Part shown: piece by piece, positions 1,340 to 44,622 of the stretch
Position numbering within the stretch: the first letter of the stretch is position 1
How the letters are laid out: each line of letters begins with the position of its first letter
Origin: Escherichia phage St11Ph5
Length of the DNA stretch: 64,000 bases
Direction: 5' to 3' (one strand)
Sequence record: NC_070873.1
Notes under the pieces: generated by a model
The model's database searches: none
What the model saw: only the letters and a program-made list of their open reading frames with translations
Told to the model about the DNA's origin: nothing
Translations under genes and position numbers: made by a program

Positions 1340-1385
1340 TTGCTTTATTTGGGGTTATAAACCCTGAAATGAAACCCTCAAGTTT

Positions 1386-1415: not shown

Positions 1416-1440
1416 GACTTAAACATTCTGGAGCCAGGAA

Positions 1441-1885: not shown

Positions 1886-2067
1886 AATTAACCCAGTCCC
1901 AAGCAATCTTCCTTCGTATGGTTCAAGGTGGCTCTGCCACCAGCAACCGTAATAACAAAACCGCACAGTCCCTTAAGAAGCTGGGCTTAGTTCAGTTCAA
2001 TGCTGGTCTTGGGTGGTCATTAACCCTTATCGGTGTACTTAAACTCAATGAAATGAAAGGTAACTAA
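1882..2067 (+). CDS. hypothetical protein
   Basis: 61-aa ORF with ATGA stop/start overlap with upstream ORF. Confidence 0.35.
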   Translation: MKLTQSQAIFLRMVQGGSATSNRNNKTAQSLKKLGLVQFNAGLGWSLTLIGVLKLNEMKGN

Positions 2068-2397
2068 ATGAAAACTTTACTTAAAGGTATTGCAGTAGCT
2101 GCACTGATAGCTTTAGCTCCAAATGCACAAGCAGTTAAACCAGAACCAATTCTGGAAGGTGCTCAGGCTTATCTGGATGACACTCGTGATGCATTCGGAC
2201 AAGGATTCTTCATGGGCAGTATGATCTCTTACATCGAGAACACTAATAACTGTGTTCCAGATGGTATGAAGTATTCAGACATTCTGCCTAAGATTGCCAA
2301 AGTAGTTATTTATGACTCTGCAATCCTCAAACTGAAGAATACATCTCAAATTGTCGTGTACTCCGTACACAAGGCATATCCCTGCACTAAATCTTAA
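2068..2397 (+). CDS. hypothetical secreted protein
   Basis: 109 aa; N-terminal signal-peptide-like MKTLLKGIAVAALIALAPNAQA. Confidence 0.5.
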   Translation: MKTLLKGIAVAALIALAPNAQAVKPEPILEGAQAYLDDTRDAFGQGFFMGSMISYIENTNNCVPDGMKYSDILPKIAKVVIYDSAILKLKNTSQIVVYSVHKAYPCTKS

Positions 2398-2431
2398 TCA
2401 GTAATCCCATTAGCTTTAGGAGAGTAAGTAA

Positions 2432-3484: not shown

Positions 3485-3491
3485 TCACAAC

Positions 3492-4667
3492 ATGAACCAA
3501 TTTCCTCAGCACACACTTAGTGATGAACAACTCATGCGTGAGTATGACCGTATTCAGGCGCAGGCGTTTCTCGGACGCAGTGCTGCGTTCTTTGGTTCAT
3601 TGCTGTGTAGTCTTAAGTTCTCATGGAAACGTGAGGATTGCCCCACTGCATGTACTGATGGGATAGAACTCCATTTCAACCCAGACTTCTTTATCTGGAT
3701 GTGTCCAGATGCAAGAGAAACAGTATTAATGCATGAACTATGGCATGTAGCATATCTACATGACATCCGTCGTGGAAGCCGTGACCCGGAAATCTGGAAC
3801 CAGGCTTGTGACCACTTCATTAACCTTCAGTTAGAAGAAGATGGTTACAAGTTCACTGGCATTGACAAAGGCATTTGCAAAGACCCTCAATATAAAGGAT
3901 GGGTCGAAGAAGACATCTACGATGACCTGATGAAGAACCCTCAGAAAAGGCAGAAGCCCTCGGGGGGTGCTGGAGCAGGTCTTGCTGGCGACATGAAATC
4001 CCCCACTTCGGGGCAGTCCCAGGGTGCTGTTGTCAACAACGTAGTACGTGCAATGCAAAGCCAGAAAATGGCTGGTGGACAGATGCCCGGTAAGGGTGCT
4101 GGTCGTATGGAAGAGGTTATTACCCAATTCCTTAAACCAGTGGTTCCCTGGCAGGAAGTTCTGATGAACTTCTTTACCGACATTGATGACACACACTATA
4201 CGTGGGCCAGACCTAATCGTCGTTACACTGATATCTATCTACCTTCCCTGGAAGATGATGAAGGACGTTTACGTCACTTAGCCTACTTTGAGGATGTGTC
4301 TGGTTCTATTAGTAGTGCTGACTCTCTGCGTTTTAACTCAGAGGTTGCCTACGTTAAGAGCCAATTCAATCCTAAGAAGATGTCCTTAATTACCTTCGAC
4401 GATATTATCCAGGAAGAGATAGACATCACTGAAGAAGATACTTTTGAAGAGATTAAGATTACAGGTCGTGGTGGTACAAGCCTTGTGCCTGTACGAGATT
4501 GGATTATTAAGAATAAACCAACCGCTGCAATCATATTCTCCGATATGTATGTTCGCCCAATGGAAGAATTGCCATTTGATATCCCTATCATCTGGTGTGT
4601 TCTGAATAATCCTAATGCTACCGTACCTTTTGGGGAGGTAGTTCATATCCCTAAAGGAATGAAATAA
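3492..4667 (+). CDS. VWA-like partner protein with N-terminal HExxH motif (CobT-like)
   Basis: 391 aa directly downstream of AAA ATPase; LMHELWHV motif near N-terminus, Gly-rich linker; assignment by resemblance to MoxR-VWA pairs. Confidence 0.55.
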   Translation: MNQFPQHTLSDEQLMREYDRIQAQAFLGRSAAFFGSLLCSLKFSWKREDCPTACTDGIELHFNPDFFIWMCPDARETVLMHELWHVAYLHDIRRGSRDPEIWNQACDHFINLQLEEDGYKFTGIDKGICKDPQYKGWVEEDIYDDLMKNPQKRQKPSGGAGAGLAGDMKSPTSGQSQGAVVNNVVRAMQSQKMAGGQMPGKGAGRMEEVITQFLKPVVPWQEVLMNFFTDIDDTHYTWARPNRRYTDIYLPSLEDDEGRLRHLAYFEDVSGSISSADSLRFNSEVAYVKSQFNPKKMSLITFDDIIQEEIDITEEDTFEEIKITGRGGTSLVPVRDWIIKNKPTAAIIFSDMYVRPMEELPFDIPIIWCVLNNPNATVPFGEVVHIPKGMK

Positions 4668-28333: not shown

Positions 28334-28627
28334 ATGGAACTCTTTAAGAAGGGTCAGCTTATACCAAAGCGTATTGGTGGATTACATGTCCATCGTAAAG
28401 CCCGACACCGTTTAACCTTTGGTTGTGATGTACAAATTGATGGTAATAGCTGGATTGCTGTACCGGATACAGGAATTGCAATGGTTCTCTGTAAGAAGTT
28501 AGGTATTCGCAGAAACAACGGTACTTACCAAAACGTAGATGCAGATTTTGTAGATATTTACTTTGAAGCTAACAAGATTGATTATGTAATCAAGACTGGC
28601 AAAAAGATTCTTGTAGTTAAGAAATAA
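28334..28627 (+). CDS. hypothetical basic protein
   Basis: 97-aa ORF with AGGAG RBS; last plus-strand gene before strand switch. Confidence 0.5.
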   Translation: MELFKKGQLIPKRIGGLHVHRKARHRLTFGCDVQIDGNSWIAVPDTGIAMVLCKKLGIRRNNGTYQNVDADFVDIYFEANKIDYVIKTGKKILVVKK

Positions 28628-28629
28628 AA

Positions 28630-28657
28630 TAGAAGCCCCTCATTAGAGGGGCTTTTT
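28630..28657. terminator. bidirectional terminator between convergent gene blocks
   Basis: Stem GCCCCTC / GAGGGGC, loop ATTA, T-tract on plus strand and A-tract upstream (T-tract for minus strand). Confidence 0.55.
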
Positions 28658-28660: not shown

Positions 28661-31600
28661 TTAGTTAGTTAGGTTGAGCCATGGGTTCAGGGTATGGGCA
28701 CGTAAGCCTTGTCCTAAACCGAAGGAGTAACCGAGATTACCCTGTGCAGCAATGCTAAAGATGTTGTCCTGAATAGGAAGACCGACGTTACCAAACATGG
28801 TAGGAGTTGGAGCCAGCATAGCCATAGCAGCATGTACTGGGTTATTACGAATCATGGACACTGCAACTTTTGCAGAACGAATCTTAAAGTTGTAGAACCA
28901 CATTAAACCAACACTTTCCATATATCCACGGAAGCGTCCTGGTAAACGGTCATAGTTAATGAACTCTTCCGTTACACGTCCTAGTGCTTCTTCACGAGTC
29001 TTGCCTTTACGCTGGGTCAGTTCATCATAGATGATTGCTTTAGCGATAAAGTCAGAGTACTCAACTGTCTTCTGGATACCCTGGAAGAGGGCAGTATCCT
29101 TAGTGATAAGTGCATAACGCCCTGCGTTACGTACAGACTTAGGCAGCTTATCAGCCAGCTTATCCATGTATTCGTGAATCTTACCTTCAGTAATCAGGAT
29201 GTCATCACGCCCAATACCAGCATCTGCAATTGAAGAGAACTCACCAGCTTCTAACAGAGGCCAGATACTCAAACGTTTATGGCTATCCGTGATGGACTGA
29301 ATCTCAGCCTTAAGTTTACGAATCTGGTTCGGGTTGGTAGCTGCACGTAATTCTGCTTCTGCATCTACCTGGCGCAGACGAGATTTTAGGTACTGATTAA
29401 TCTCAGCAGTTTTCTGTGGAATGCTCTTAGCAATGTTCTTAACAGGTACACCACGAGCAACCATCTGGTAAAGGTTAGCCAGGAAGTTAACAGCAGGTAC
29501 AACTACTGACTTAACTACAATCAGAGTCTTAGCTTCTTTAACTAAGTTCTGAACCAGATTCTCACCACCCATTACATACTTATAAGCACGGTTGCCAAAT
29601 ACACCCAGCATAGCTTTCTTGAAGGTATCCAGTGTTTCTGGGGACCAACGAGAATTACCAGACCAGGCATCACCAACAGAAGCTGCACGATAACCAAGAG
29701 CATCATTGAGCATGTCACGACGTACCCATAACTCACCCGGACCAAACAGACTTTCTGCTTTCTGACGAGTTTCACTGTTCATCAGCTTAAGTGCATCAGC
29801 AGTTACTGGGTCCAGTTTAGAACCAAGAAGGTTAACGTACTGGGACTTATTAGAGGCAGACATCTTAATATCGTTCTCATACATGCTATGCAGATTCTCA
29901 ATAAGCATGTCGTTGAAACGCTGAGCCTTAGCCTCTTCCACCTGACGTCCACGCCATACACCAATCGCACGAGCAAGATGGTTCTCACCTTCGATGTGCT
30001 TCAGCATATTAGGGTCAATGGATTGCTCGTAAGCAACCACATTACCATTGGCATCATATACAGGCAGCAATGGTTCATTACCACGTTCACCGCGAGCCAG
30101 TGCTTTAGTAACACGGTCCACGGAAGGCTTGTCAGTGATACGACCAGCTACCATGGTTCCCATAGTAAAGCCTGTACCAAGGTCTACGCCACCAGCAGTA
30201 TTGCGAACGTTCTGCAGGATACCCTGTGAGAATGGAGCCTGTGCCTGTACTGGTGCAAAGTAGTAGCTACGTGCTGGCCCACGATTAGCAGAGCTACCCT
30301 GATAAGTGCCCAGTCGTACATAGGATTTCTCAATCAAATCAGCAAACTGACTATCTTCAGCAACAATCAGGTTAACACCCTGTTTAGTCTCACCAGGGAT
30401 ATATCCTTTGTACTGGTTCAAGGTTGCACGACTATCAGACTTAGCTTTAGCCATTTCGTCTTTACGCTGACCAACCAGGTAAGAAGTAGCAAAGTCCATA
30501 CCTTCAATTTCTGTCTGAGCCAGTGAAGATAACATCTCACGGTCAGTCTTATTCATTGCTTCCAGTGCATACAGAGTAATCAGTTTATCCAGCTGAGCTA
30601 CATCTACAACAGAACGTGTAGTCTTACGTTCGCCCAGCAATCGAGAAATTGCAGTAGCATTACGCAGCAGGTTATTACCAACAGTACCATTAATCATGTA
30701 CTGAGCCAGTTGCTTAGATTTACGGTTAATCAAAGACCAGTTACGTCCGGCTTGTTTCTGCAAATCTGCTTCCAGTTTATTAACCTCACGGTCAACAATC
30801 TTCTGGTCAGTTAGCAAGTCACGGATTTCAGCCAAAGACATAGTGTCACGCAGAACAGCTAAGTCAGTTTTACCCATACCGGTATGCATTGCTTTCCACT
30901 CCTCATTAGTCAGCTTACGGCTGAACTTAGATGCGATAGTGGTAGGTAAATGTTCACGGAACTGTTGACGGTCAGCCTGTACCTGTGCACGTACTGCTTT
31001 AATCAAATCATACACAGAAGCATTGCTCTTAGTACGTCCGATTATGTCATTAACCAGGTCATGGAAAGGTTGCCATACTTTACCCTGGTTCATTGCAGCC
31101 ATAACACCTTCAGCTACGATTGAACCATTCTTCTCTGTAGCAATAGCAGCTATCAGTTGTGCAGCATGAGCAGCACCTTTGACCAATGGGTTCTTGGTAT
31201 TAGCCGCAACTTCACGAGCACCTTCCAAAGCACGGGTAGACAGCACATCAATAGAATCCACCAGATACTGGTTAGCACGGTCGATAGCATTACCAGTAGG
31301 AGTAGCAACGGAATCATAGAAGGATTCTGCATTAAGACTGGTCTGCATGATTGTCTGAGCCAGTGCATCCATACCTTCCTGTACGTTAGTGGCTTTAGTA
31401 TCACCTGCAACACGAGCATTCAGACTAGCCATTGCAGCAGTACCGATGTTAGTCAGCATTGCGTCAACAGTATTGCCAGATTTCTTATCTGCTTTCATAA
31501 CAGGAATATCAGCCAGCACCTTACGTACTTCTTCACTTACCATTGCCAGACCAACAAAGGTAGGCAGTAAGGAAGAACGACCATGTGCATCAAACTCAAT

Positions 31601-34600
31601 GTTGTTAGCACCCATGATGGTATCGAACTTCTGCTGTGCATAGTAACGGTCAGCAGGGTTAGTACTATCTGGGTCAGCCATGAATACTTCGACGGTCAGG
31701 TTCTTAGTAACATGTGTGTAGTATTCCTGTGCACGAGCCAGGGCAGCTGGGTTAATAGCAGCCTCAGTAGCTAGTGCAGCAACAATGTTAGTGAAGAGAC
31801 GCTGTTCCTGCATATTCATGGTGAAGCCATGGGCCTGAACATCACGGGTTACTTTGGTTGCATTCACTACTGCATCAGAGAACTTACCTTTGCGAATTAC
31901 TTGCTGTACTGGTTCTGAACCAATGTAGTTAGTAATTAGCTTATCGAAGGTTTTCCCTAATTCTTCCAGACGGGTATTGTTACCATATGCTTTGTTATGG
32001 AACAGGGTAGTGTCTTTGGCTACAGTAGCAGTAGGAGCTTGTCCACGCATTACTACAGCAGAGTTAAACAGTAAGCCAGAGAACATATCATCTGCATTAG
32101 CCGGAGCTTTCTTACGTCCGAATACCAGACGCTTGATTGCTTCATATACAGCCTGAACCATCGTTTTAAGTGCAGTGGTTTTCTTCTGCTTATTAATAAG
32201 TTCACGGTTAGTTAATCCCCAAGCCATGTACTCATTCAGTGCAGCAGCTTTAGCCATTGCTGGTTCAATGAAGCCATTAGACAAGTGACCATTAATGGTA
32301 TTCAGTGCATCAGCATATGCTTCACGTACTGCCGGAGATTCATCATAAACATCCAGAGCACGGAACTGGTTCATCAGGTCTTCAATATTCTGGACAGCTT
32401 CATTAGGAGTACCTTCGTAGTGAGCCAGTACAGATTCAAAAGTAGAAGCATGTACCAATTCATGAACCAGAGTCTCTAATGAAGGAGTAACTAAGTAGAT
32501 GGTCTTATCTTCAAAGTTAGTCCAGCCATATGCATTACCTGCTTCAGCAGCCTCAATATCTTCTGGTGCTGGGCGAGTAATATTCTTCTCAATAGCATAG
32601 GCATCCAGTTGAGAAGGTGTACCATAAACAACCTTATAGTCTTTAGCAGCAAGGGATTTCTGTATTTCTTTCAATACTTCTTGCTGTTCAGGAGACATCT
32701 CTTTAGCCAATTTAGTAATAGCAGTATTAGACAGCAGACGTACACCAGATTTCAGTACACGACCAACTTGTTCCATTGCTGGTACTTCTTTCACTGGTTC
32801 TGCTTTAGCAGCACGTACTGCATCACGACGCTTGTTTAATTCAGCATCAAACAGTTCGTTCAGCTTAGCTACTTGCTGGTCTACAGTTAAACCTTCCAGA
32901 GAGATTTTACCGTTGTTCACATAAGGAGCACCAACAGCAGCCATCTGGTCAACAGTGACCTGTACCTGGTCCATTACCTTGTGACGAATATCTACACCCA
33001 GGGCAATGTTACGCAGATTACGCTCAATTAATGCAATACCAGAATCTTTAATCATAGAAATTTTATAATCTCTATCACCATCTACTCTGGTAATCTGAGC
33101 ACGTTGATCAAAGTCTAAAGCAGACTTCGCAATAGCATCTATTGCTGCATCGGACAGCTTATTTAAATCAACATTCTTAGCAAACTTAGAGAAAGACTCA
33201 TAAACATTCTTGATAGGGTTACCCTGCCAGGAAGTATATACAGCCTCGTTAGCTTTACGGCTTGCATCAGTAATGTCATTGATACCAATGTTCATACCAT
33301 CAAAGATTTTCAGGGTATTCTTTGGAGCACCTTTCATAGTAGAAAGAGTCTGCATCATCATGCCATCACCAGTACCGATGGTCATAAATGGAATACCTGC
33401 TACACCTGCCTGCGAAGGAGCATAGATGCTCATTGGCACACGCATACGGTCATCTAAGTTAGTAGCCAGTACTTGGTTAGCAACATCAGTATTTTCACTA
33501 CCTGCAATGTAGAAAGTCTGGGAACCAGTCTCAATCATTGGAGCCAGTGGTGCTAAGCTATTCTGAATTTCATTCAGTTCTTTCTGTGTTAAGAAATCAC
33601 CTTTCTTCCATGTTGGGTCTTTTTCTTTTTCTGCCAGTTTAGCCTGTACTGCCTGTTGGAACATATCCTGCAATACCAGAGATTGAATCTGGGTAGCCTT
33701 CTGTAAGTTCTCCGTAGATTGCATCAACCCTTCACCAACAGTGAATCGGATACTTTGTCTCATAGGCTCAACAAAGAAGTGCAGCATATTCTCTTGTAAG
33801 TTCTTAAGAGCATCCCCGGATACGGTAAACTCCCGGGGATCTAACTTACCAGTCAGAACACCATCTACTTCTTTAATGAATAACTTACCTTTACGCTTAG
33901 CTGGAATATTTCCAGTCAATGCTTTCATAGAAGTAAGGAAGGTATCCAGCATAGCCTGAGCATCGGCTTCAGATGCAGCCTCCTTACCAAACATCGCCAT
34001 AGCTGGGGAAATGTTAGGGTCAACAGCACGGGCTTTTAGAACGTCGCTTAAGCGTTCATAGATGGTATCAGTAATTGCACTTACCATCTTGCCAGCAATA
34101 CCACGTGCGCCAGAACCATAGATGGTAATGGTTAGTGGGTTTTTAGCGATACCACGTTTCAAGTCCAGAGTACCGTCTTCCTTAAGATTGAAGTCTTTAA
34201 TGAACAAATCCATTAGCTTCTGGAGATGGTCCATCTGGTTTATAACAGGAATATTTTTACTATAAGCATTGCGTAATTCATTTAGATAGAATTGCAGACT
34301 ATTAGTAGATGCTTCATACAGGTCAACACTGTCTTCCTGAGTATGATGCTCATTCATGGTCTTACCGGCTTTACCGAAGAACAAACCACCTTTGGCAGTA
34401 TTCTTAATCCAGTTTGGAGTGAACTTACCACCGGTCATTAATACCATTGCGTTGATTGGACCGTTGGTTACACCATCGGCTTCAACGTACAGTGGGGTAT
34501 TAAAGTTGGCACGGTCATCACTGTTAAGATAACGGGCATATTCCATAAGAGCCATAAGAGCTACAAAGGATTTATCATTACCAAGAGATGTTCTCAGAAT

Positions 34601-37600
34601 ATCCACTGCATCAGTAGGTAAGTATCCAGACTTATCAAACTCAACCATCATATCTACAGCAGGTTTCAGCTTACCTTCCAGAGCTTTGGTAAGTTCTTCT
34701 GACATAGTTTCACGAGTCATTTTATGAACTTTGATACCTAATGCCTGAGCCAGTCCAAGCTGGAAGCCTGAGAAGTCTTCATTGTTCTGATTCGATAAAT
34801 CCAGAGTAGCTTTAGTAGGTAAGATAGCCTCACGAACCAACTTAGCTGATTGAGGATTATATTTACCTAACATCTGCATACGACCAACACGGGTCATATT
34901 GTAAGCATAGTGAATAGGCACAGTGGAAATGTCTTCACTCTGTGCTCTCACCTGTTCAATAACAGAGAACAATTGGTTGTAAGAATCCTCTACTGAACGG
35001 TTTTTACCTTCCAGAGATTTAGCATGGTTCTTATTAAGTAAATCCTTATCCAGAGTACCAGCACCCATCAATTCGAGGATACGGTCTTTACCTAAAGCCT
35101 CATAGAACTGAACCATTGGGGTATGCACAAAGAACTCTGTAGCCTGCTCTGCTTTAAGGGCAGCTTTCTGTTCCGGAGTATTACGGACAGCAGGGTTACG
35201 TAACTGAGTATGAGCCACGGGAGGAATGTCATCACCGAAATACAGTTTCTCTACTGGTTCTACGAGGACAGCTTCCTCGATAGCAGTAGGGAATTTGTTA
35301 ATAGCGTCGGTATCATCCAGCTTCTCAATGGTATACAGACCAATAGTCTTATTGGATTCTGGGTCAATTTCAGACACATCCAGCATGGACTCTTTAACTT
35401 CACCCATTTCAATAAGGGAAGATAGAATCTCTGTAGCCATTGCCATCGGGATACCTTTGGTATAACCCAGTGGTGCATCAGCATTACGATTAAGTCCCCA
35501 GTAAGATTCAATCTTTTGAGCCAGTGAGTTAGTAGCTTCTACTAAGGTTTGTGCATTCTCAAATTCTGCGAGGATACCTTCTGGTAACAAGGAAGCATTT
35601 ACACCAGTAATTGCAGCCACATCCTGCATGTCTTTAATAGCAGCATTCTGTGTAGCAGTAAGTCGCCATTGCAGACCAGCAAGTACAGCAGTCTCTAACA
35701 ATTGGTCATTGAACTTAAAGGTGTCTCCGTCTTTCTCTACGATATTAAGTAACTTACCACCTACCCAACGGTTAGCTTCAGTACCTTCTGCAAAACGTTT
35801 ACCAACGTTCTTGTTAGCAAGGAATTTAGTCAGACGGTCAGACAAAGTAGTCTTCAGAGTTTCACCAAACTCAAATAAGTCCTGGTAACGCTTAATCACA
35901 TCACTTGTGAGAGCGTTATTTTCTTTTTGAGTAAATGCTTCAAAACGAGCAGCAGAAGACAGTGCTTTATTAACATCAGTTAAAGGAGATTCAGAACCAA
36001 TGGTACGGGACTTAGGTTCTTCTGGCAGACTAAATGCTTTAAGGAACTGGTTCGGTGTCTTTTCATTGTTATAGACAGGGAACACTGCTTCCATTCCCGA
36101 TAGAGGTTTACCACCAACAGTATAGTCTGCTTTCAGTTGAGCCAGTGATACTTCTTCTTTCTCAACGTTATTGGTATTAAGCCCAGATGTATCTACACCA
36201 ATCTGAATCAGTGCATTGTTTGCTTCTACGAATGATTGAACAGTATTGAATTGTTCAGCAGTTAGCTTCTGATTATCAAACAATTGCAGAGATACGAACG
36301 GTTGCTCACTACCTTTATAGAAAGTAGAACGTACAGCACCAGTATCCAGAGACATGTCACGATAACCATCATGACCAAATACGTCAGACAGACTGATATG
36401 GTCGCCATTGGAACCAACAACAGTACCATCAGCGAATAGCCATGGACTATCTCTACGGTCACCATACTTATTAAGAGTATCTTGTGAAATAGTATTCTCT
36501 TTCACATAAGAATCTCTTTCAGATTCAGTAGGCTGTTCAACGATATCCTGTTTTTCAGACTGGTTCTCAGGTTCTTTTACGGTTTGTGGTTTAGACTCTT
36601 TAATAGTAGGTTCTGTTTTAACAGCTTCACTAACAGAGGGTTTAGTCTGTACAGTAGGGGTAACTGGTTCCTGTTTTGTAACAGGAGCTTCATCAACCTG
36701 ATTCACTGGTTCATTAGTCTGTTGGGATTGAGCAGCATCAAGATTGCCCTGACGGAACTCTTTAACTACCTGGGCAGCAGGCTTGTTCAGACGTGAATCC
36801 AATGGGGTAACTTTCACATGAGAAACATTAAGCTCCGGGTAAGCCGTAGCAAGTGCGTTAGCAATATCAGCTACGGTCTTGGCTTCCAGTCCTACTTGCT
36901 GGGCAAACTTAACAGACTTGGTATCATACGGATTGACACCGAGGCCAGTACGACTACGTACCCATTCACGCGAGGGAGTAAGAGCCTGATAATGGACAGA
37001 CTTATTCTTATCCGCATTCCCAGAAATCAGATGCTCATTCAACGCTCCGACCTTATTCTGCATGTGCTGGGCGAACTTCATAAAGTCGTCGAGATAAGCG
37101 GAAGCCAAATCGAAGTTACCAGAGTTGTACGCAGAACGAATGCGTTTAGCATGTTGCAACGCAGAGTACTGGCCTTCATTAGAACGAGACTCGTCGGTTT
37201 TAATCTGTTTACTAACAATGTCTTGAGGACGTAAGCCTAGTTCTTCTGCTTTAGCATCAAATTCTCGTGCTCCTTGTAATAGAGCAGCAGCAGATTGCAG
37301 GGCAGCACGCTGACGATTCCCCAGTGTAATCTTACCTTCACTTGCATGTTTCAGAACCATGTTCACTGAATCTGCATCCAGCACTTCTGGAGACATATCA
37401 GCAGCCATAGCAATGTTGTTTGCCTGAGCTTGGTTAGCTTCTTCAGTAGCTTTCAGTTTACCTGCTTCAGCCTGTTCCTGAATCATAGAATGGATGGCAC
37501 GGAATGCACGGAGTACCTTCGGTGTATTCTGAACATTAGCCATCAGGCCAGAGAATTGGTCAACAATATTAGCAGCAGGAGAACCCTGTTCCAGATTAGC

Positions 37601-39466
37601 CAGAGCACCAGGGTCACGGTTAATGAAGCTATCCATAGACATGATGTTGTCATACATCTGGATTGCAGCTTCCATTTGAACGTTAGGGTCTTCGGCAGTA
37701 TTAACCAGGTCAGCCATCTTCTGAATAGCTTCAACACGGTTAGTGGAACCAGAAACAGCTTCACGGATTGCCGGGCTAGCTTGTTCCAGTTCTACTGGGT
37801 CAAACTTCATTGCCTGAGTTAAGTCAGCAGCATACTGAGTAGCAGCAGCTTTCTCTTCAGGAGAAATATCCATTGCATCTACTGCTTCCTGAACAGTTGC
37901 TTGAGCCTGTTCTGCCTGAGCAGTAGCTTCTTGTGCAGCAGCATTAACTGTAGCGTCTGATACAGGGGATGCTTGTTCATTTCGCTTAGCAACTTCTTCG
38001 CCACGCTGAACCAGGATGTTAGTAATAGGAGAAGCAGCTTTTGCTAATGCATTACCAGCCAGAGAAGCAGCAGCCATGGTAGTACGTACAGCAGGACCAA
38101 CGGCAGCACCAGCAGCTTTAACAGTTGCACCAGGAGCTTGAGCAACTCCAGCAGAACCGAAGCCATACAATGCACCAAGCCCGGTTTGTTCACCAACACC
38201 TTTAAGCAAATCACGCTTAGCATCTACATTACCTTGAATTGCCTTGTTCTGTGCAAGCTGACTTGTACCAGACTGGATACCTTCTTCTACAGTCTCACGC
38301 AGCATGTTAGAACCAGCACCAGCCAGTGAACCTACCTTAAGTGGATTAAGTTCAAACTTGGATACCAGTGGACCAGTAAGAGCAGCAACCGGAGCAGTTA
38401 AGCCAGCAGCAGTAATACCTGTTTCAGATGCAGTTTGACGACGTGCTTCTTCAGGAGATAAACCATCTTTAATATGCTGTTGGTATACAGGGGATTTAGC
38501 AGCCAGTTCACTAAACGGCATTTCCATAATTTCATTAGCAGTTTGTTGGTATGCACCACCAGCTTCCATACCACCAATTGCTATAGCAGGTGCAGCAACA
38601 CGACCAGTAGCCAATGCAACCTGTGCAGGACGTGAACCTAATTCAGCAGCTAAGGTAATACCCTTAACAGCTTTATCCCCACCTACCATTACTTTACCGA
38701 GTGCGGATACACCACGAATCAATGGACCACCGGTAAAGAGAGAACCAACACCCTCAGCCAGACCATCAGTAGCAGCCATGCCATTGGACAAAGTGTTAAC
38801 AACAGAATCGTAAGCATCACGTCCAATGCGAGACAGGGAAGCAACGAGTTCGCTTTCTCCTTTAGCAATATCCTGCTTATAGAGTTTCTCATTCTCCTGT
38901 GCAGATATTACGTTCTGGTTCTGTACTACATTACGACGAGCATTCAATGCATCAGACTGTAGGTTATGTACACCTTTATTCAACCAGTCAAGACCGGAAG
39001 CAATGGATGCCCCGGCATTATCATTGACCAAGCCTGTGCCAAGAGCAGCAATGCCCCCAAGGGTATTAGCAACACCAAGACCAACACCAGAAAGGGTATC
39101 ACCAAGTGCTTCACCATATGTACGACTCTTAGTTAAATCACGACGAACAGCATTAGCTGCATTGACACGAGCATTGAGAATGTCCATTCCTTGCTCATTG
39201 CCGTACTTGTTTATGATTTCAAGAGGAGAGGCGTTAGTAAAATCTGCCTGAATAGAACCTGGGTCAAATGCACCAGCACCTAAGTTACCAGTACGACCTG
39301 CCTGCAATTGGTAGGCATTCTGAGGAGTTAATTGGAAAGGGTTTTGCCCTTGTTCAGCTTGTTTCCGAGAGGTTGCAGTAGAGACATCGACTTGCTTAGC
39401 AGTAGTGATGCTGTCTGCGAAACCTGCCAGACGGTCAAATGTTGACATAGCATGATTCCTGTTCAA
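28661..39466 (-). CDS. virion-encapsidated RNA polymerase (N4 vRNAP-like giant protein)
   Basis: Single 3601-aa ORF; size and genome position match N4 gp50; central segment ITIYGSGARG compatible with single-subunit RNAP motif B. Confidence 0.8.
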   Translation of the reverse strand: MNRNHAMSTFDRLAGFADSITTAKQVDVSTATSRKQAEQGQNPFQLTPQNAYQLQAGRTGNLGAGAFDPGSIQADFTNASPLEIINKYGNEQGMDILNARVNAANAVRRDLTKSRTYGEALGDTLSGVGLGVANTLGGIAALGTGLVNDNAGASIASGLDWLNKGVHNLQSDALNARRNVVQNQNVISAQENEKLYKQDIAKGESELVASLSRIGRDAYDSVVNTLSNGMAATDGLAEGVGSLFTGGPLIRGVSALGKVMVGGDKAVKGITLAAELGSRPAQVALATGRVAAPAIAIGGMEAGGAYQQTANEIMEMPFSELAAKSPVYQQHIKDGLSPEEARRQTASETGITAAGLTAPVAALTGPLVSKFELNPLKVGSLAGAGSNMLRETVEEGIQSGTSQLAQNKAIQGNVDAKRDLLKGVGEQTGLGALYGFGSAGVAQAPGATVKAAGAAVGPAVRTTMAAASLAGNALAKAASPITNILVQRGEEVAKRNEQASPVSDATVNAAAQEATAQAEQAQATVQEAVDAMDISPEEKAAATQYAADLTQAMKFDPVELEQASPAIREAVSGSTNRVEAIQKMADLVNTAEDPNVQMEAAIQMYDNIMSMDSFINRDPGALANLEQGSPAANIVDQFSGLMANVQNTPKVLRAFRAIHSMIQEQAEAGKLKATEEANQAQANNIAMAADMSPEVLDADSVNMVLKHASEGKITLGNRQRAALQSAAALLQGAREFDAKAEELGLRPQDIVSKQIKTDESRSNEGQYSALQHAKRIRSAYNSGNFDLASAYLDDFMKFAQHMQNKVGALNEHLISGNADKNKSVHYQALTPSREWVRSRTGLGVNPYDTKSVKFAQQVGLEAKTVADIANALATAYPELNVSHVKVTPLDSRLNKPAAQVVKEFRQGNLDAAQSQQTNEPVNQVDEAPVTKQEPVTPTVQTKPSVSEAVKTEPTIKESKPQTVKEPENQSEKQDIVEQPTESERDSYVKENTISQDTLNKYGDRRDSPWLFADGTVVGSNGDHISLSDVFGHDGYRDMSLDTGAVRSTFYKGSEQPFVSLQLFDNQKLTAEQFNTVQSFVEANNALIQIGVDTSGLNTNNVEKEEVSLAQLKADYTVGGKPLSGMEAVFPVYNNEKTPNQFLKAFSLPEEPKSRTIGSESPLTDVNKALSSAARFEAFTQKENNALTSDVIKRYQDLFEFGETLKTTLSDRLTKFLANKNVGKRFAEGTEANRWVGGKLLNIVEKDGDTFKFNDQLLETAVLAGLQWRLTATQNAAIKDMQDVAAITGVNASLLPEGILAEFENAQTLVEATNSLAQKIESYWGLNRNADAPLGYTKGIPMAMATEILSSLIEMGEVKESMLDVSEIDPESNKTIGLYTIEKLDDTDAINKFPTAIEEAVLVEPVEKLYFGDDIPPVAHTQLRNPAVRNTPEQKAALKAEQATEFFVHTPMVQFYEALGKDRILELMGAGTLDKDLLNKNHAKSLEGKNRSVEDSYNQLFSVIEQVRAQSEDISTVPIHYAYNMTRVGRMQMLGKYNPQSAKLVREAILPTKATLDLSNQNNEDFSGFQLGLAQALGIKVHKMTRETMSEELTKALEGKLKPAVDMMVEFDKSGYLPTDAVDILRTSLGNDKSFVALMALMEYARYLNSDDRANFNTPLYVEADGVTNGPINAMVLMTGGKFTPNWIKNTAKGGLFFGKAGKTMNEHHTQEDSVDLYEASTNSLQFYLNELRNAYSKNIPVINQMDHLQKLMDLFIKDFNLKEDGTLDLKRGIAKNPLTITIYGSGARGIAGKMVSAITDTIYERLSDVLKARAVDPNISPAMAMFGKEAASEADAQAMLDTFLTSMKALTGNIPAKRKGKLFIKEVDGVLTGKLDPREFTVSGDALKNLQENMLHFFVEPMRQSIRFTVGEGLMQSTENLQKATQIQSLVLQDMFQQAVQAKLAEKEKDPTWKKGDFLTQKELNEIQNSLAPLAPMIETGSQTFYIAGSENTDVANQVLATNLDDRMRVPMSIYAPSQAGVAGIPFMTIGTGDGMMMQTLSTMKGAPKNTLKIFDGMNIGINDITDASRKANEAVYTSWQGNPIKNVYESFSKFAKNVDLNKLSDAAIDAIAKSALDFDQRAQITRVDGDRDYKISMIKDSGIALIERNLRNIALGVDIRHKVMDQVQVTVDQMAAVGAPYVNNGKISLEGLTVDQQVAKLNELFDAELNKRRDAVRAAKAEPVKEVPAMEQVGRVLKSGVRLLSNTAITKLAKEMSPEQQEVLKEIQKSLAAKDYKVVYGTPSQLDAYAIEKNITRPAPEDIEAAEAGNAYGWTNFEDKTIYLVTPSLETLVHELVHASTFESVLAHYEGTPNEAVQNIEDLMNQFRALDVYDESPAVREAYADALNTINGHLSNGFIEPAMAKAAALNEYMAWGLTNRELINKQKKTTALKTMVQAVYEAIKRLVFGRKKAPANADDMFSGLLFNSAVVMRGQAPTATVAKDTTLFHNKAYGNNTRLEELGKTFDKLITNYIGSEPVQQVIRKGKFSDAVVNATKVTRDVQAHGFTMNMQEQRLFTNIVAALATEAAINPAALARAQEYYTHVTKNLTVEVFMADPDSTNPADRYYAQQKFDTIMGANNIEFDAHGRSSLLPTFVGLAMVSEEVRKVLADIPVMKADKKSGNTVDAMLTNIGTAAMASLNARVAGDTKATNVQEGMDALAQTIMQTSLNAESFYDSVATPTGNAIDRANQYLVDSIDVLSTRALEGAREVAANTKNPLVKGAAHAAQLIAAIATEKNGSIVAEGVMAAMNQGKVWQPFHDLVNDIIGRTKSNASVYDLIKAVRAQVQADRQQFREHLPTTIASKFSRKLTNEEWKAMHTGMGKTDLAVLRDTMSLAEIRDLLTDQKIVDREVNKLEADLQKQAGRNWSLINRKSKQLAQYMINGTVGNNLLRNATAISRLLGERKTTRSVVDVAQLDKLITLYALEAMNKTDREMLSSLAQTEIEGMDFATSYLVGQRKDEMAKAKSDSRATLNQYKGYIPGETKQGVNLIVAEDSQFADLIEKSYVRLGTYQGSSANRGPARSYYFAPVQAQAPFSQGILQNVRNTAGGVDLGTGFTMGTMVAGRITDKPSVDRVTKALARGERGNEPLLPVYDANGNVVAYEQSIDPNMLKHIEGENHLARAIGVWRGRQVEEAKAQRFNDMLIENLHSMYENDIKMSASNKSQYVNLLGSKLDPVTADALKLMNSETRQKAESLFGPGELWVRRDMLNDALGYRAASVGDAWSGNSRWSPETLDTFKKAMLGVFGNRAYKYVMGGENLVQNLVKEAKTLIVVKSVVVPAVNFLANLYQMVARGVPVKNIAKSIPQKTAEINQYLKSRLRQVDAEAELRAATNPNQIRKLKAEIQSITDSHKRLSIWPLLEAGEFSSIADAGIGRDDILITEGKIHEYMDKLADKLPKSVRNAGRYALITKDTALFQGIQKTVEYSDFIAKAIIYDELTQRKGKTREEALGRVTEEFINYDRLPGRFRGYMESVGLMWFYNFKIRSAKVAVSMIRNNPVHAAMAMLAPTPTMFGNVGLPIQDNIFSIAAQGNLGYSFGLGQGLRAHTLNPWLNLTN

Positions 39467-39510
39467 ACTTATATCGTATAAGAAGTTTCACTGTACAGTA
39501 AGTGAATGTA

Positions 39511-39535
39511 AGAGAAAAGCCCCGGATGGGGCTTT
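39511..39535 (-). terminator. terminator-like hairpin
   Basis: Stem AGCCCC / GGGGCT, loop GGAT; T-tract on minus strand after hairpin. Confidence 0.45.
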
Positions 39536-39551: not shown

Positions 39552-41498
39552 TTATCGAGGTTGCATATAGGGAGGTAAACCCTCTGCTAATTTTCGATAA
39601 CGTTTAGCTCGTTCTTCATCTTCACGACTACGCTCACGTTCTACTGAAGCATTAGAACGGAAGTTCTGTGGAACCAGGTTTCCTTGGTCAGCTACCACAG
39701 TATTGACAGCAGCATCTAGTGCAGCTCGTGCTCTTGCTAACTCAGCCTCACGAGCAGGAATAGTAGCAGCAAGTCCACTTTGCCCAGCAGCTACACGACG
39801 ACGGGTATCAGCAAGCAAGGCTTCTGCTTGTGTTACCTGGTTCTGAGCATTTTCAATATTACCCTGTACCTGAGTAAGAACATTATCACGAGCAGTAGCT
39901 TCAATACCTTCCCCACGTCGTACCGAACGTGCTAGTTCTCTGGCAACGGTATCATCAATACGAATACCACCACCACCCTCATTGGAGATGAATGGATTAA
40001 GTGCATCAAGTGCTCGACTAATCATACCTTCCGGTACGTTGGTAGTAGACTGCTTAAGAATCTCAGCAGCTACAGCAGGAGACTGACCGGATTCCTGCAT
40101 AACATCATTCAGTCGAGCTATCATCCATCCTTTCTCAGAACCTTTAAAAGCATCCTTAAGAAGACGGTCTGCTACTTCACCAATGGTAGAGTTGTCACGT
40201 AATGCACGAGCATAGTTAGCAGTAATAGTTCCAGTATTATCTTCAGACTGGCGAGCAGCAACTGTATTGCCTGCCATGTTTGAGACTACTTGCTGGGTCT
40301 GTAACTGTTCAAGAGGTGCACCTACTTCTGCCTGTGCAATTAACTGACGTGCTTCACTCCATGGCATATCCTTATAACCACCAACACCCAAGTCAGGCAA
40401 TGCAGCCCAAGTCTTGGAAAGGTTACCACTCTTACGGTCATTGAAGATTGCTTCAGCTATTTTGTCCTGTACTTCAGGAGTCATTTGCTGATTACGCCAA
40501 TCTGAACCAAGCACCTTAGGTGCATAGTCTTCCAGAGTAGCTTTATTAATCTGAAATGCTCCTACAGGGGAATGACCTTGTGACGGGTTATTAATCATAG
40601 TTTGTTGATGATTAGTAACCTCACCCAGTGTCATTTCAGTAATAGGCTTATCAGTAGCAGCAAAGGTATATGTTGCATCATAAGGAGAACCAGAACGAGT
40701 ACCAGCAGTTCCCGGAGCAGGGCCAGAAGGAGACACAGCATAAGTACCCGGGAATCTCTGGTTCACACCTCGCATGATTGCAGCACGTACACCAGGAGAA
40801 GCATTCTGCATAGCAGACTCTGCCAGTGTAAGAGCATCCATAGGTGTAGAAGCACTACGGAAAATGTCTGTCAATATACCGGATGCAGCTTGTGAATCAG
40901 CATCATTACGTTGAGCCACACCCAAATCAAAACGGTTCTGTGCTTGGTTAATAGCCTGACCACCTTGCCCTTGAAGACGACTCAGCATATCCAGTTGTTG
41001 ATCAGCAGGGAGTGTAGACAGTGCCTCTCGGGTTTGTCCCAATGCAGAATTAATACGGTTCTGGTCACCGGACTGATAAGCCTCAGACAGCAGTCGAATA
41101 GCTGGAGAAGCATTATCCAGTGCAGAGTTAACATCCTTTAAGCGACCAAAGTTATAAGCATTGAAGTCATTGATTCCCTGTTGACCTTGCTGAGTCAGAA
41201 GTGTACCTGCTCGCTCATCCAGATTCTGAAGGGTATGTTGGTTTACCAATGAAGGGTCAACCCCCTGAAACAGTGCACCAGATGCCAGAGCATTACGATA
41301 CTCAGTAGGGTCTTGATACTGCATAGCATTCATCATGACGGCATTGCCAGCCTCCTGCTTGGCAGCGTTCTGGAAGTTACCCAGTGCATCACTTAAGCCG
41401 GAGGTGGCGCTACCAATCATGCTTCCAAATGTGCGAATGCTGTCACCAACTCCGGAGAAGTTAGGTGCATCAACATTACGCCATGTAATTTGAGCCAT
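39552..41498 (-). CDS. virion protein (N4 gp51/52-like position)
   Basis: 648-aa ORF upstream of vRNAP in late operon; Gln/Ala-rich; product by synteny. Confidence 0.4.
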   Translation of the reverse strand: MAQITWRNVDAPNFSGVGDSIRTFGSMIGSATSGLSDALGNFQNAAKQEAGNAVMMNAMQYQDPTEYRNALASGALFQGVDPSLVNQHTLQNLDERAGTLLTQQGQQGINDFNAYNFGRLKDVNSALDNASPAIRLLSEAYQSGDQNRINSALGQTREALSTLPADQQLDMLSRLQGQGGQAINQAQNRFDLGVAQRNDADSQAASGILTDIFRSASTPMDALTLAESAMQNASPGVRAAIMRGVNQRFPGTYAVSPSGPAPGTAGTRSGSPYDATYTFAATDKPITEMTLGEVTNHQQTMINNPSQGHSPVGAFQINKATLEDYAPKVLGSDWRNQQMTPEVQDKIAEAIFNDRKSGNLSKTWAALPDLGVGGYKDMPWSEARQLIAQAEVGAPLEQLQTQQVVSNMAGNTVAARQSEDNTGTITANYARALRDNSTIGEVADRLLKDAFKGSEKGWMIARLNDVMQESGQSPAVAAEILKQSTTNVPEGMISRALDALNPFISNEGGGGIRIDDTVARELARSVRRGEGIEATARDNVLTQVQGNIENAQNQVTQAEALLADTRRRVAAGQSGLAATIPAREAELARARAALDAAVNTVVADQGNLVPQNFRSNASVERERSREDEERAKRYRKLAEGLPPYMQPR

Positions 41499-41510: not shown

Positions 41511-41954
41511 TTAACGAGTTAGCTTATTAGCTGCAATGTAAGCATCAGCTGAAGACTGGTCACGGTTCTCTGCTGTAGCACGACTACGAGCACGGTCTTC
41601 TAGTGCAGTGTTATAAGACTTAATCTGGTTATTCAGGTTAGTGTTAGTAACACTCTTAGCAAAGTTCAACTGGTCTTTGGCTAACTTATTAGCCTGGAAA
41701 CCACTGTAGATATTAGCTAATGAACCAAGTGCACCAAGCCCTAACTGAAAGGTAGGTACGTTCATGCCCAACTGATTAGCTGAACCAGACATGAGCGAAG
41801 TAGGGGTAGATGCACCCAAATTAGTACCCATACCAATAGCTGCACCTGGGTTATAGTTCATAGCCGAGGTATTAAAGTTCTGATTGTTATTAGACATCCA
41901 AGACATAGCAGCTGGCTGTGGGGTTTGGTTGCCTGTTAAGAATGACAAATCCAT
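41511..41954 (-). CDS. hypothetical virion protein
   Basis: 147-aa ORF in structural block. Confidence 0.4.
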   Translation of the reverse strand: MDLSFLTGNQTPQPAAMSWMSNNNQNFNTSAMNYNPGAAIGMGTNLGASTPTSLMSGSANQLGMNVPTFQLGLGALGSLANIYSGFQANKLAKDQLNFAKSVTNTNLNNQIKSYNTALEDRARSRATAENRDQSSADAYIAANKLTR

Positions 41955-41967: not shown

Positions 41968-44622
41968 TTAAACTAGGTCAGTATTAAGGGTCATGTCAGA
42001 GTAGTTGCCAATCATGTCTAGAGACAAGTCAGCTATATCTGAACCAGTCATAAGAGTACGTGATAAGAATGAATCCAGTGACTCCATTGACACGAATTGC
42101 ATTGGGTCAATTACACCCTGCCCAGCAGTACCAAACATTTCTTCATACTGCTTATTGATTGCCATCATATCAGTATTGTACTGCTGCATTACTTTCTCTG
42201 CTTTCTGAATAGTAGCAGCCGTAGATGCATTAATATACTGACTAATACCATTACCTACCGAACTGGTAAGCTGCATGATGTTTTGGGCATTCATCATCTC
42301 ACCTGCTAGGGTGGATAAGGATGTACCAGTAGACAAAGCAGTACCAACATTCATAGCTACCAATGAAGCAATAGCAGCAATGATAAAACCTAGCTTATCT
42401 CCGAACAGTGCAGTGGATACTTTTGTAGTAATGGATATCAGAATCATTGCAGCAATAGCATTTGCTACAGCACCAACTATTACAGCAGCTAATCCAACAA
42501 AACCAAGAGAAGCACCAACTGCACCATATGCTCCAAGTATACCTGCACCACCAGCACCCATAGTGAATACGGATACAACGACAGCAACTACAACAACCAC
42601 AATCTTAAAAGCAGATGTTTGGTACCACTTCTGCTTAACCTTCTTATATGAGTTCATCACTAAGTAGGAACAGGCAGTGGATAACTGAGTACTTCGAACC
42701 AGTGACATTGAACGGTAGATGTTAGTATGTAGTGGAATAATGAATCCACTCTCCTCTGCATCACCCATTGCTTCGGCAACATCAATGTGCACTGACTTAT
42801 TCTTATATACCCTGTTATTGTGGTTTAGACCCAGTACCCTGAGTTTACGGTAAGTGTTATTACCATCCTGCCAAAGCAACTCATACTCCTGCATCGAATA
42901 GAATGTATATGTTACTTCAAGTTTCTTAGCAGAACCGGAGTTAGAAGCTGTCCTTATGTTCTTGCGAGTAAGAGTTATATCTCCTGCATACCTGGCTCGA
43001 AGTTGTCCTTGCTTAGCACCAGACCATGCTTGTCCTGAGTGAGTAGTTTCGGATACATAGTTCCAGCCAATAGTCATGTCATATTTGTAATGCTTATTAC
43101 TATGTACCCTAAACTCTCGCTTAGGTATGACTGGATATTCTGGAAGTGGCGGGGGAGTTCCAATAGTATGCCCCTCAGTTCTGTTCCACCATTCTACATA
43201 TACATCAACTGCATCATTAGCTGCCTGATACCCTGCAATCACTGCCTCCAAAGTTGGGTAGGTTGGGTCAGGAGGGAATGCTTCAGTAGCCATCTGAAAG
43301 AAGCGATAGATGTATTCCTTGGCAGTATCTTCAGGAGTATTAAGAGATACACCGAATGTTCCATAAATGTACTGAATATCACCTATATCATCATTCTTCT
43401 TAAGCTCTGTCACTACCTTATCAATTTTCCCACCAGTAGCTTTATAAAGGGCTTTCTTACAGTGTGGGTAGATTGGGTCATTCTCTACCCATTGTTTATC
43501 ATTCCTGATTGGAATGAATGGATAGAACCGGTTATCAGTAGCCTCAGTTTCAAACAGTGAATCTAGTGCAACGTTACCAGAGTTCTGCTTATAGATAAGC
43601 ATCTTAGGCGTACCAACAGCAGTCATCTCAGTATCAGTACGAGTAGTCTGAGATGAGTACTTACGAACCAGTGTCTCTGTGGTTGTAGTAATTGTATCGG
43701 TACGAGTAACACCACCACCTATATCAACTACATTGGTAGTCACAACAGTACTGGACTGAATCTCACCAAACTTTTTATGAGTCATTACTCTGTCAGATAC
43801 AACTACAGTCACATCATCAGGTTTCTCAGTGAATCCTCTACGGTAAACCTTAACGTAAGAGTTCCAGTTATCCACACTTGGCTCAGTGACAGTACTATCT
43901 TCATCTGGTCTGCCATCAGAGTAAACAGAATGAGTATGTATAGTCTTAATAAGGTTGGTTGTATTAGCCGTCGTATCGCTTGAAATGGTAGTCCATAACA
44001 AAGTGGAGGGTAAGTCATCCTCATCATCATAGACAGTAGTCGGTCCTACTACAGGTGGATTAATAGAAGGGGATTTGTAAAAAGAGTAATCAGCATAGAG
44101 ATACAAAGCACCTGGTTCAAAGTTAGTAGGTGTGAATTTAATAGTAGAACCTCCATCCAAGGAGGTCATAGTAATTTCATTGATATCTTCATCAATGTCG
44201 ATGTCGAATCGTTCCATGATTCGACTTGGAGCATTCTCATAAAGATACTGGTCACACCATTGTTCAAAGTCAGCAAAGCCAATCTCTGCTGCCTGAACGT
44301 AGACAGACTCTCCAGCAGGTGGTGTAATTTGACCCTCTATAACAGTAGGGTCAATCTTAGCCAGTACACCTAATGAAGAACCAGCCATGCCAACTTCTGA
44401 ATCATAGTGATTCTTACTCCAGCTGGAGAACAGTCGCATACGAATACCCGGCCCATTCAGATAACTATCAGAGATAGTGTCTGCCATAGTGAATCCTGTA
44501 TTTGAAACGATATTGCCTATGACTACAGTCTTCATATAGTTAGGGCGTTTATGTATATCCCCTGCCATGTTATAGACAGAGGATGCTACGTATACTTTGG
44601 TCTTCCCACTGAATAAGCCCAT
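41968..44622 (-). CDS. large virion protein with C-terminal multi-pass membrane region
   Basis: 884 aa; C-terminal about 120 aa Gly/Ala/Val-rich with 3 predicted TM helices. Confidence 0.45.
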   Translation of the reverse strand: MGLFSGKTKVYVASSVYNMAGDIHKRPNYMKTVVIGNIVSNTGFTMADTISDSYLNGPGIRMRLFSSWSKNHYDSEVGMAGSSLGVLAKIDPTVIEGQITPPAGESVYVQAAEIGFADFEQWCDQYLYENAPSRIMERFDIDIDEDINEITMTSLDGGSTIKFTPTNFEPGALYLYADYSFYKSPSINPPVVGPTTVYDDEDDLPSTLLWTTISSDTTANTTNLIKTIHTHSVYSDGRPDEDSTVTEPSVDNWNSYVKVYRRGFTEKPDDVTVVVSDRVMTHKKFGEIQSSTVVTTNVVDIGGGVTRTDTITTTTETLVRKYSSQTTRTDTEMTAVGTPKMLIYKQNSGNVALDSLFETEATDNRFYPFIPIRNDKQWVENDPIYPHCKKALYKATGGKIDKVVTELKKNDDIGDIQYIYGTFGVSLNTPEDTAKEYIYRFFQMATEAFPPDPTYPTLEAVIAGYQAANDAVDVYVEWWNRTEGHTIGTPPPLPEYPVIPKREFRVHSNKHYKYDMTIGWNYVSETTHSGQAWSGAKQGQLRARYAGDITLTRKNIRTASNSGSAKKLEVTYTFYSMQEYELLWQDGNNTYRKLRVLGLNHNNRVYKNKSVHIDVAEAMGDAEESGFIIPLHTNIYRSMSLVRSTQLSTACSYLVMNSYKKVKQKWYQTSAFKIVVVVVAVVVSVFTMGAGGAGILGAYGAVGASLGFVGLAAVIVGAVANAIAAMILISITTKVSTALFGDKLGFIIAAIASLVAMNVGTALSTGTSLSTLAGEMMNAQNIMQLTSSVGNGISQYINASTAATIQKAEKVMQQYNTDMMAINKQYEEMFGTAGQGVIDPMQFVSMESLDSFLSRTLMTGSDIADLSLDMIGNYSDMTLNTDLV

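Follow-up and report, generated by a model that had tools for sequence, protein, structure and literature searches.

The 64,000-nucleotide (nt) window of Escherichia phage St11Ph5 that we analyzed (NC_070873.1; all coordinates are positions in this window) holds one exceptionally large gene on its minus strand, which encodes an N4-type virion RNA polymerase (vRNAP) with an additional domain, here called insert B, between its N-terminal and polymerase parts. The open reading frame (ORF) listing bears out a statement made in an earlier note from the sequence alone, that positions 28661-39466 of the minus strand form a single uninterrupted frame of 3601 codons, counted from a TTG; the next longest ORF in the window has 945 amino acids (aa). 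The same note had read the frame as an N4-type vRNAP, which homology searches and motif comparisons uphold, with a correction to the start codon. Because homologs all begin MS(T/V)FDRLAGF, a sequence that starts with ATG 39448 in the window, and because this codon is preceded at a distance of 8 nt by AGGAA, the true start is almost certainly here, with TTG 39466 merely opening the frame. The predicted product is thus 3595 aa and 391 kDa, which exceeds N4 gp50 (3500 aa) by 95 aa. The parts of the gene are as follows.

28661..39448, minus strand: vRNAP (gp50 ortholog) coding sequence (CDS) from the ATG, 3595 aa plus stop, by homology searches and alignment
36746..39448, minus strand: N-terminal domain (NTD), aa 1-901, 61% identical to N4 gp50 aa 1-906
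36476..36745, minus strand: low-complexity E/Q/T/V/P-rich linker 1, aa 902-991, corresponding to about N4 907-1004
36098..36475, minus strand: insert B, aa 992-1117, 126 aa, 13.8 kDa, acidic, absent from N4 in the alignment
32801..36097, minus strand: central T7-like polymerase (Pol) domain, aa 1118-2216, 73% identical to N4 mini-vRNAP
35765-35767, minus strand: Trp that contacts the -11G, by alignment
34880-34894, minus strand: T/DxxGR, by alignment
34475-34477, minus strand: motif A Asp, by alignment
34118-34144, minus strand: motif B K..Y, by alignment
33299-33301, minus strand: motif C Asp, by alignment
28664..32770, minus strand: C-terminal domain (CTD), aa 2227-3595, 70% identical to N4
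32450-32464, minus strand: zincin-like HELVH motif in the CTD, aligned with N4

The identification rests on several searches that agree over nearly the whole protein. A phmmer search of PDB recovered full-length N4 gp50 chains at E=0 in collinear blocks (aa 1-990 and 1129-3594), PHROG 2206, "virion RNA polymerase," matches aa 25-3594 (profile positions 5-3405 of 3406), and four vRNAP families of Pfam (vRNAP_dom_2, plug, helical domain, and vRNAP_dom; PF21867, PF21624, PF21894, and PF21769) are matched with E values of 1e-25 to 4e-99, the plug match (PF21624 vRNAP_plug) having 1.4e-25. At the DNA level, Shigella phage pSb-1 has 94.4% identity over the gene; 55 G7C-like phages (genus Gamaleyavirus, Schitoviridae) have 87 to 94% identity, G7C itself 87.4%, and the pSb-1 and G7C comparisons span 99 to 100% of the gene, whereas N4-genus and Klebsiella phages reach just 60 to 80%. 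No database record is at least 95% DNA-identical to the St11Ph5 vRNAP gene, and its nucleotide identities place the phage in Gamaleyavirus. We therefore assign a probability of roughly 93% to the reading of this ORF as the late gene with which a G7C-like coliphage (Gamaleyavirus, Schitoviridae) encodes its virion-encapsidated RNA polymerase, and there is no evidence that contradicts the vRNAP assignment.

We aligned the window protein with the vRNAPs of N4, G7C, IME11, Bp4, and AN24P2 using MAFFT, and the N4 gp50 comparison suggested in the earlier note proved collinear, allowing the polymerase domain to be mapped and exposing one 126-aa insert. Similarity to N4 gp50 at E=0 is accompanied by intact catalytic residues: in mini-vRNAP numbering, R424 (T/DxxGR), D559 (motif A), K670 and Y678 (motif B), and D951 (motif C) are invariant in the window protein and the five relatives, as is W129, which stacks on the -11G of the promoter hairpin, and K114 and R119 are kept in the window protein. 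The position of N4 mini-vRNAP Lys267, which we take to be a candidate promoter-contact residue, is occupied by Asn in the window protein (vRNAP aa 1366, ~35351-35353) and most Gamaleyaviruses and by Asp in AN24P2, and this change may imply slightly different promoter-hairpin contacts. The HELVH sequence is the sole HExxH of the protein, at aa 2329, and aligns with N4 residue 2228, part of the zincin-like motif of the N4 CTD described by Iyer et al. (PMC5512222). The flanking domains also have assigned roles in N4, where the NTD is a membrane-inserting domain required for genome injection (PMC13434306) and the CTD is needed for encapsidation and autoinhibits the polymerase (PMC13492108).

One annotation suggests another gene structure. 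The RefSeq record of pSb-1 annotates three separate CDSs here, each named "virion RNA polymerase," and on that model the giant ORF would really be several genes; this is highly improbable given one unbroken 10.8-kb frame in the window and likewise in G7C, N4, IME11, Bp4, and AN24P2, together with the purification and imaging of N4 gp50 as a single 383-kDa chain (PMC13434306). The three-CDS split most likely reflects frameshift sequencing errors. GenBank orthologs of this protein are often misannotated, under names that include "DNA polymerase," "gram positive anchor domain protein," "translation initiation factor 2," "GTP-binding domain," and "hypothetical protein."

The length of the protein proved more informative than its identity. 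The earlier note had put it at about 100 aa longer than N4 vRNAP and allowed for extra insertions; the excess is 95 aa, and essentially all of it is a single discrete module rather than scattered insertions, namely insert B, the 126-aa block at aa 992-1117. It falls between N4-equivalent residues ~1004 and ~1005, at the Pol-proximal end of linker 1; in structures determined by cryo-electron microscopy (cryo-EM), the ordered part of the N4 Pol domain begins two or three residues past this point. The N4 linker is a low-complexity, flexible tether of ~100 aa at residues ~907-1006 (PMC13434306), and judging from the alignment, the N4 linker-Pol junction looks like a precise empty site. Among 50,697 phage records, 27 carry insert B, at 93 to 100% aa identity, and every one of these is a Gamaleyavirus; two very divergent family members used as queries recovered the same 27 phage records and nothing else.

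About half of the Gamaleyavirus genus (IME11, AN24P2, PhAPEC7, and others) lacks both insert B and ~20 aa of the linker. Because insert-minus phages nest inside insert-plus phages in trees of the NTD, Pol, and CTD, and because the three trees disagree, the vRNAP gene is mosaic, insert B having been lost or exchanged within the genus. Neighbor-joining trees of the three domains from St11Ph5, G7C, Bp4, IME11, and AN24P2 are mutually incongruent. The linker itself (aa 902-991, 36476-36745) is nearly identical to those of N4 and AN24P2, the linkers of G7C, IME11, and Bp4 differ, and its synonymous divergence (dS) from N4 is 0.37, compared with ~1.0 for the rest of the gene; it looks like a recombination patch common to the Enquatrovirus and Gamaleyavirus lineages. 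A second, unrelated insert occurs in G7C gp50, namely insert A, which is 136 aa long (alignment positions ~974-1109) and closely precedes insert B; its sole match is a weak one to a PHROG helix-turn-helix DNA-binding protein (E=0.0047). The vRNAP linker seems to accept additional modules generally.

Insert B is an autonomous domain under strong purifying selection. Its ratio of nonsynonymous to synonymous substitution rates (dN/dS) is 0.043 to 0.045, compared with 0.14 to 0.15 for Pol and 0.3 to 0.5 for the adjacent linker. Exhaustive HMMER searching across 1.84 billion representative proteins yielded 21 homologs at E<=1e-3, and in a family alignment of 18 sequences with 22 to 64% identity, the invariant columns are Ser-Pro-(Trp)-Leu, Asp-Gly, Asp-His, Arg, and Gln, within the conserved motifs SPWL, DG, GDH, TGA(I/V)R, LTxxQ, and N(P/N); in the window protein, D1016, H1017, and R1040 are among the invariant residues. 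All family members are acidic, with isoelectric points of 4.2 to 5.8 (that of insert B itself is 4.6), and the flanks of the module in the homologs are P/A/T/Q-rich. From this 18-sequence alignment, AlphaFold2 predicted a compact alpha/beta domain with a predicted local distance difference test (pLDDT) score of 91 and a predicted template modeling (TM) score of 0.85; a single-sequence AlphaFold2 model was poor (pLDDT 50), and an independent model, that of a pSb-1 fragment in BFVD, superposes on the insert B model with a TM score of 0.93.

The homologs lie in the following proteins.

3675-aa protein with SLT, SNF2 helicase, methyltransferase, and LPD39, on a temperate-phage contig
Protein with methyltransferase, ddrB-ParB, and LPD39
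Proteins carrying LPD38, LPD22, or InPase
TrwC relaxase
Relaxase-type protein adjoining mobC on a Vibrio plasmid, with the module apart from LPD7
166-aa stand-alone protein, the sole stand-alone homolog, on a metagenomic contig at 7294-7794

These proteins suggest that insert B is a module of an uncatalogued domain family that recurs in giant polyvalent proteins traveling with DNA. The term "polyvalent proteins" (Iyer et al. 2017) denotes proteins transferred with invading DNA; the N4 vRNAP is counted among them, and the accessory domains ART, lysozyme, and PBECR are known in other vRNAPs (PMC5512222). The helicase part of the 3675-aa protein is similar to anti-restriction genes of DarB-like type in Serratia and Klebsiella phages, and the closest copies of insert B outside vRNAPs are in a DarB-like protein, with 63 to 67% aa identity and 77% nt identity over 190 nt, which points to exchange among Enterobacterales phages. 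A metagenomic vRNAP that is 23 to 25% identical to the window protein in Pol and CTD has the module at the equivalent position, with 593 residues from the module to the helical domain compared with 601 in the window protein. The 166-aa homolog adjoins a 585-aa ParB_N/HTH_ParB protein, and its phage-like contig encodes a DNA polymerase III beta clamp, a Prok_Ub/E2/JAB/ThiF ubiquitin-like set, and a CCA-adding enzyme. A word-index protein search, which seems to miss giant proteins, returned nothing for insert B itself and just the 166-aa stand-alone protein for the family profile. Pfam, NCBIfam, and PHROGs contain no family for insert B, the scans having included the 18 homologs and the check having covered the LPD families deposited in Pfam; in the literature, we found no published description of insert B in any vRNAP, G7C gp50 included.

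Several candidate identities for insert B were tried and rejected. Partial Foldseek matches to RumA, tRNA-splicing endonuclease, and Hjc are below threshold (E>=0.09, TM<=0.35). The FliF ring-building motif gave a marginal PDB profile match (E=0.014, 38 residues), and Foldseek recovered no ring-building motif; the predicted alpha-beta-beta-alpha-beta core of insert B is compatible with that motif, and the lead remains unsupported. A tblastn match to mycobacteriophage MuF-like proteins (E=8) is at chance level. Identity with LPD7 is contradicted by the Vibrio plasmid protein, which has LPD7 at aa 699-777 and the module at ~1085-1184.

With respect to function, we tentatively suggest, at somewhat less than even odds, that insert B targets a host or defense factor, as an accessory domain with an effector or binding function; some other specific binding or regulatory role is rather unlikely. 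As N4 and about half of the Gamaleyaviruses do without it, insert B would be accessory and is probably not needed for transcription itself. Two results weigh against a functional role of this kind: insert B is dispensable in N4 and IME11-type phages, and a Foldseek search against PDB returned no functional homolog for it (best E of 0.09, TM<=0.35), so that the effector role is a conjecture. A more specific proposal, somewhat on the unlikely side, is that insert B is the first recognized member from a cultured phage of an undescribed acidic effector family that neutralizes or modifies a host factor. The carriers of such a family would be vRNAPs, DarB-like anti-restriction proteins, and conjugative relaxases, and the host target might be, for example, a defense nuclease, with insert B serving as a DNA or protein mimic; alternatively, insert B might be a small enzyme that uses the invariant Asp-His/Arg/Gln.

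Two further explanations deny insert B a function of this type. It could be a passive spacer, an extra "bead" that lengthens or stiffens the tether between NTD and polymerase and has no activity of its own. It does sit in the linker described for N4 as a flexible tether of ~100 aa, no part of the gene varies more in length than this linker (as insert A of G7C and the shorter IME11-type linker illustrate), and a 13.8-kDa module would be small enough for a ~35-Å channel. A spacer would, however, be expected to evolve with the linker-like dN/dS of 0.3 to 0.5 rather than 0.04, the polar S, D, D-H, R, and Q are invariant across relaxases, DarB-like helicase-methylases, and the 166-aa stand-alone protein, and the relaxase, DarB-like, and stand-alone homologs do not share the vRNAP tether, all of which makes this explanation distinctly unlikely. 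The variable presence of insert B among close relatives and the HNH homing endonuclease annotated near G7C gp50 might instead suggest a selfish element, either an intein or the remnant of a homing endonuclease, but there is no intein, HNH, or LAGLIDADG match in Pfam even at E up to 10, the Cys/Ser/Thr and His-Asn residues needed for splicing are absent from the boundaries (..SQDT|LNKYG .. GKPLS|GMEA..), the homologs are ordinary internal domains of many unrelated proteins, and insert B is under strong purifying selection; we regard this origin as very improbable.

The gene is bounded by hairpins on both sides, and a short conserved leader precedes its start codon.

28631..28656, both strands: bidirectional intrinsic terminator that separates the vRNAP gene from the convergent plus-strand gene 28334-28627, by scan, folding, and comparison with G7C
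39507..39535, minus strand: intrinsic-terminator-like hairpin after the gp51 ortholog and before vRNAP, with its stem-loop at 39516-39535, by folding and conservation
39449..39506, minus strand: vRNAP leader, by conservation
39487-39506, minus strand: second hairpin in the vRNAP leader, conserved in position
39464-39475, minus strand: conserved GATATAAGTTTG block, by alignment of relatives
39468-39473, minus strand: -10-like TATAAG within GATATAAGTTTG, by sequence
39456-39460, minus strand: Shine-Dalgarno AGGAA, by sequence

The bidirectional terminator that the earlier note had placed at about 28630-28657 is confirmed by the scan, a shuffle test, and the G7C annotation. The site at 28631-28656 is the best-scoring terminator-like site of the region on both strands, with stems of 11 and 9 bp and 6 G-C pairs; it folds with a free energy (dG) of -20 kcal/mol (z = -6.2 on the minus strand and -4.4 on the plus strand), none of 200 shuffles was equally stable, and its G7C counterpart is annotated as two rho-independent terminators. 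Further strong terminator-like hairpins, at 27350-27371 (plus strand) and 28282-28302 (both strands), punctuate the short plus-strand genes to the left of vRNAP. The minus-strand terminator that had been proposed upstream of the gene stands in part. Its hairpin, AAAGCCCC-ATCC-GGGGCTTT at 39516-39535, is real and conserved (dG of -13.1, z = -4.5), occurring at the same place in N4, G7C, IME11, Bp4, AN24P2, and pSb-1, mostly with a clean T6 tract; in St11Ph5 it is followed by UCUCUU, an interrupted U-tract, and because of this interruption the site was missed by the consensus terminator scan. In the leader downstream, the block from GATATAAGTTTG to AGGAA is invariant and at a fixed distance from the ATG in N4 and the five Gamaleyaviruses examined. 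The second hairpin, at 39487-39506, keeps its position in these phages with a different sequence, and two of its pairs have double changes; it might belong to the promoter architecture, serve RNA processing, or act as a further terminator.

These features suggest that the vRNAP gene is a separate transcription unit, an inference resting on the conserved terminator and the conserved -10-like element. The leader may contain a promoter for late transcription. In N4, late genes use sigma-70 promoters that N4SSB activates (PMC4496689), and the conserved leader pattern is compatible with a terminator and, after it, a late promoter of this N4SSB-activated type that is weak and would score poorly under a sigma-70 consensus. 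Two observations pull the other way: the upstream U-tract is weaker in St11Ph5 and pSb-1 than in their relatives, so that read-through from gp51 is plausible, and the consensus scan scored no sigma-70-like promoter in the leader (85-bp gp51-vRNAP spacer). An alternative is that gp50 is not an independent transcription unit and is made mainly by read-through from a gp53-gp52-gp51 late operon, with the hairpin acting as a leaky attenuator or an RNA-stability element. The interrupted U-tract (UUUUCUCUU) in St11Ph5 and pSb-1, at a site that fails the consensus terminator rule, is consistent with this alternative, as are the lack of a scored sigma-70-type promoter in the 85-bp spacer and the arrangement of the genes, which are co-oriented and functionally linked, all encoding ejection proteins. 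However, the hairpin and T-tract are kept from N4 to all Gamaleyaviruses examined, and the strict conservation of GATATAAGTTTG..AGGAA at a fixed distance from the ATG fits a weak N4SSB-activated promoter (PMC4496689); we consider read-through as the main route possible, though on balance unlikely.

The genes upstream of vRNAP complete an N4-type ejection cluster.

39552-41498, minus strand: N4 gp51 ortholog, by PHROG and gene order
41511-41954, minus strand: N4 gp52 ortholog, by PHROG and gene order
41968-44622, minus strand: N4 gp53 ortholog, by PHROG and gene order

Their PHROG matches are 6126 (virion structural), 2646, and 2220, and the order gp53-gp52-gp51-vRNAP is the same as in G7C and N4. 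In N4, gp51, gp52, and gp53 are the periplasmic-tunnel, outer-membrane, and plug proteins, respectively, and are released together with vRNAP (PMC13434306). The N4 P2-type hairpin promoter (GAAGCNNNGCTTC) has 0 exact occurrences in the window, whose span likely omits the early region; matches with 3 mismatches to the N4 P2 hairpin motif occur at chance level. By G7C coordinates, the window probably begins ~7.5 kb into the genome, and the early region with its hairpin promoters probably lies outside it.

By analogy with N4, for which the mechanism and the definition of the linker have been described (PMC13434306, PMC13492108, PMC4496689, PMC5512222), the St11Ph5 vRNAP would be expected to act as follows. 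A few copies would be packaged via the CTD and later leave through the tail and a gp51/gp52 channel of ~35 Å like "beads on a string"; packaging and ejection have been shown for N4 (PMC13434306) and, according to a note in the G7C record, for G7C gp51. The NTD would anchor the protein in the inner membrane, and Pol and CTD, tethered by the linker, would refold in the cytoplasm. Promoter binding would then free Pol from autoinhibition by the CTD, and the Pol domain would transcribe early genes from DNA hairpin promoters extruded by gyrase and SSB and help to pull in the genome. In this model, the cytoplasm would be the final location of insert B, which would lie where the DNA enters, flanked by the membrane anchor and the polymerase.

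As a vRNAP gene, this locus offers nothing new: the biology is already known, and the gene is a textbook N4-like case, a 94%-identical ortholog of annotated genes in close relatives, with full-length cryo-EM structures available for the N4 enzyme. The only nontrivial result is insert B as a putative uncatalogued polyvalent-protein module. It indicates that the NTD-Pol tether, a featureless linker in N4, serves G7C-like phages and one distant vRNAP as a docking site for an extra domain, and it gives curators a domain family that is missing from current libraries. Because natural insert-plus and insert-minus phages exist within one genus, insert B also lends itself readily to testing as a candidate for a new accessory function delivered by injection.

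Among known systems, N4 gp50 (PDB 9PNR, 9PNQ, 11GP, 3Q0A, and 2PO4) is one with which the St11Ph5 protein shares the order of NTD, linker, T7-like Pol, and alpha-helical CTD, the catalytic residues, the plug, the -11G Trp, the HExxH motif, the gene neighborhood, and the flanking terminators. It differs in that N4 lacks the 126-aa module, its linker running directly into Pol at ~1005-1007, and in that K267 of mini-vRNAP is Asn in St11Ph5. Other Gamaleyavirus vRNAPs (pSb-1, ZQ2, EC1-UPM, Bp4, and G7C) share insert B at 93 to 100% aa identity and the flanking terminators; among them, G7C gp50 differs by the additional 136-aa insert A upstream of insert B, which brings it to 3748 aa, and pSb-1 by the annotation of its vRNAP gene as three CDSs, while IME11, AN24P2, PhAPEC7, and similar phages lack insert B and ~20 aa of linker and have vRNAPs of ~3450 aa. 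Like polyvalent proteins such as the P1 DarB-like proteins, relaxase fusions, and the vRNAP-ART of Roseovarius Plymouth podovirus 1, the St11Ph5 vRNAP is a giant, DNA-delivered protein with autonomous modules and low-complexity linkers, but insert B matches no LPD or other family in Pfam. Finally, the single-subunit RNA polymerases of T7 and mitochondria have a right-hand fold, in which the motifs T/DxxGR, A, B, and C occur (Kazmierczak et al. 2002), and the St11Ph5 enzyme has the same motifs; it is, however, 4 times larger, with NTD and CTD extensions and an extra module, and as an N4-type enzyme it would be packaged in the virion, injected, and directed to single-stranded hairpin promoters.

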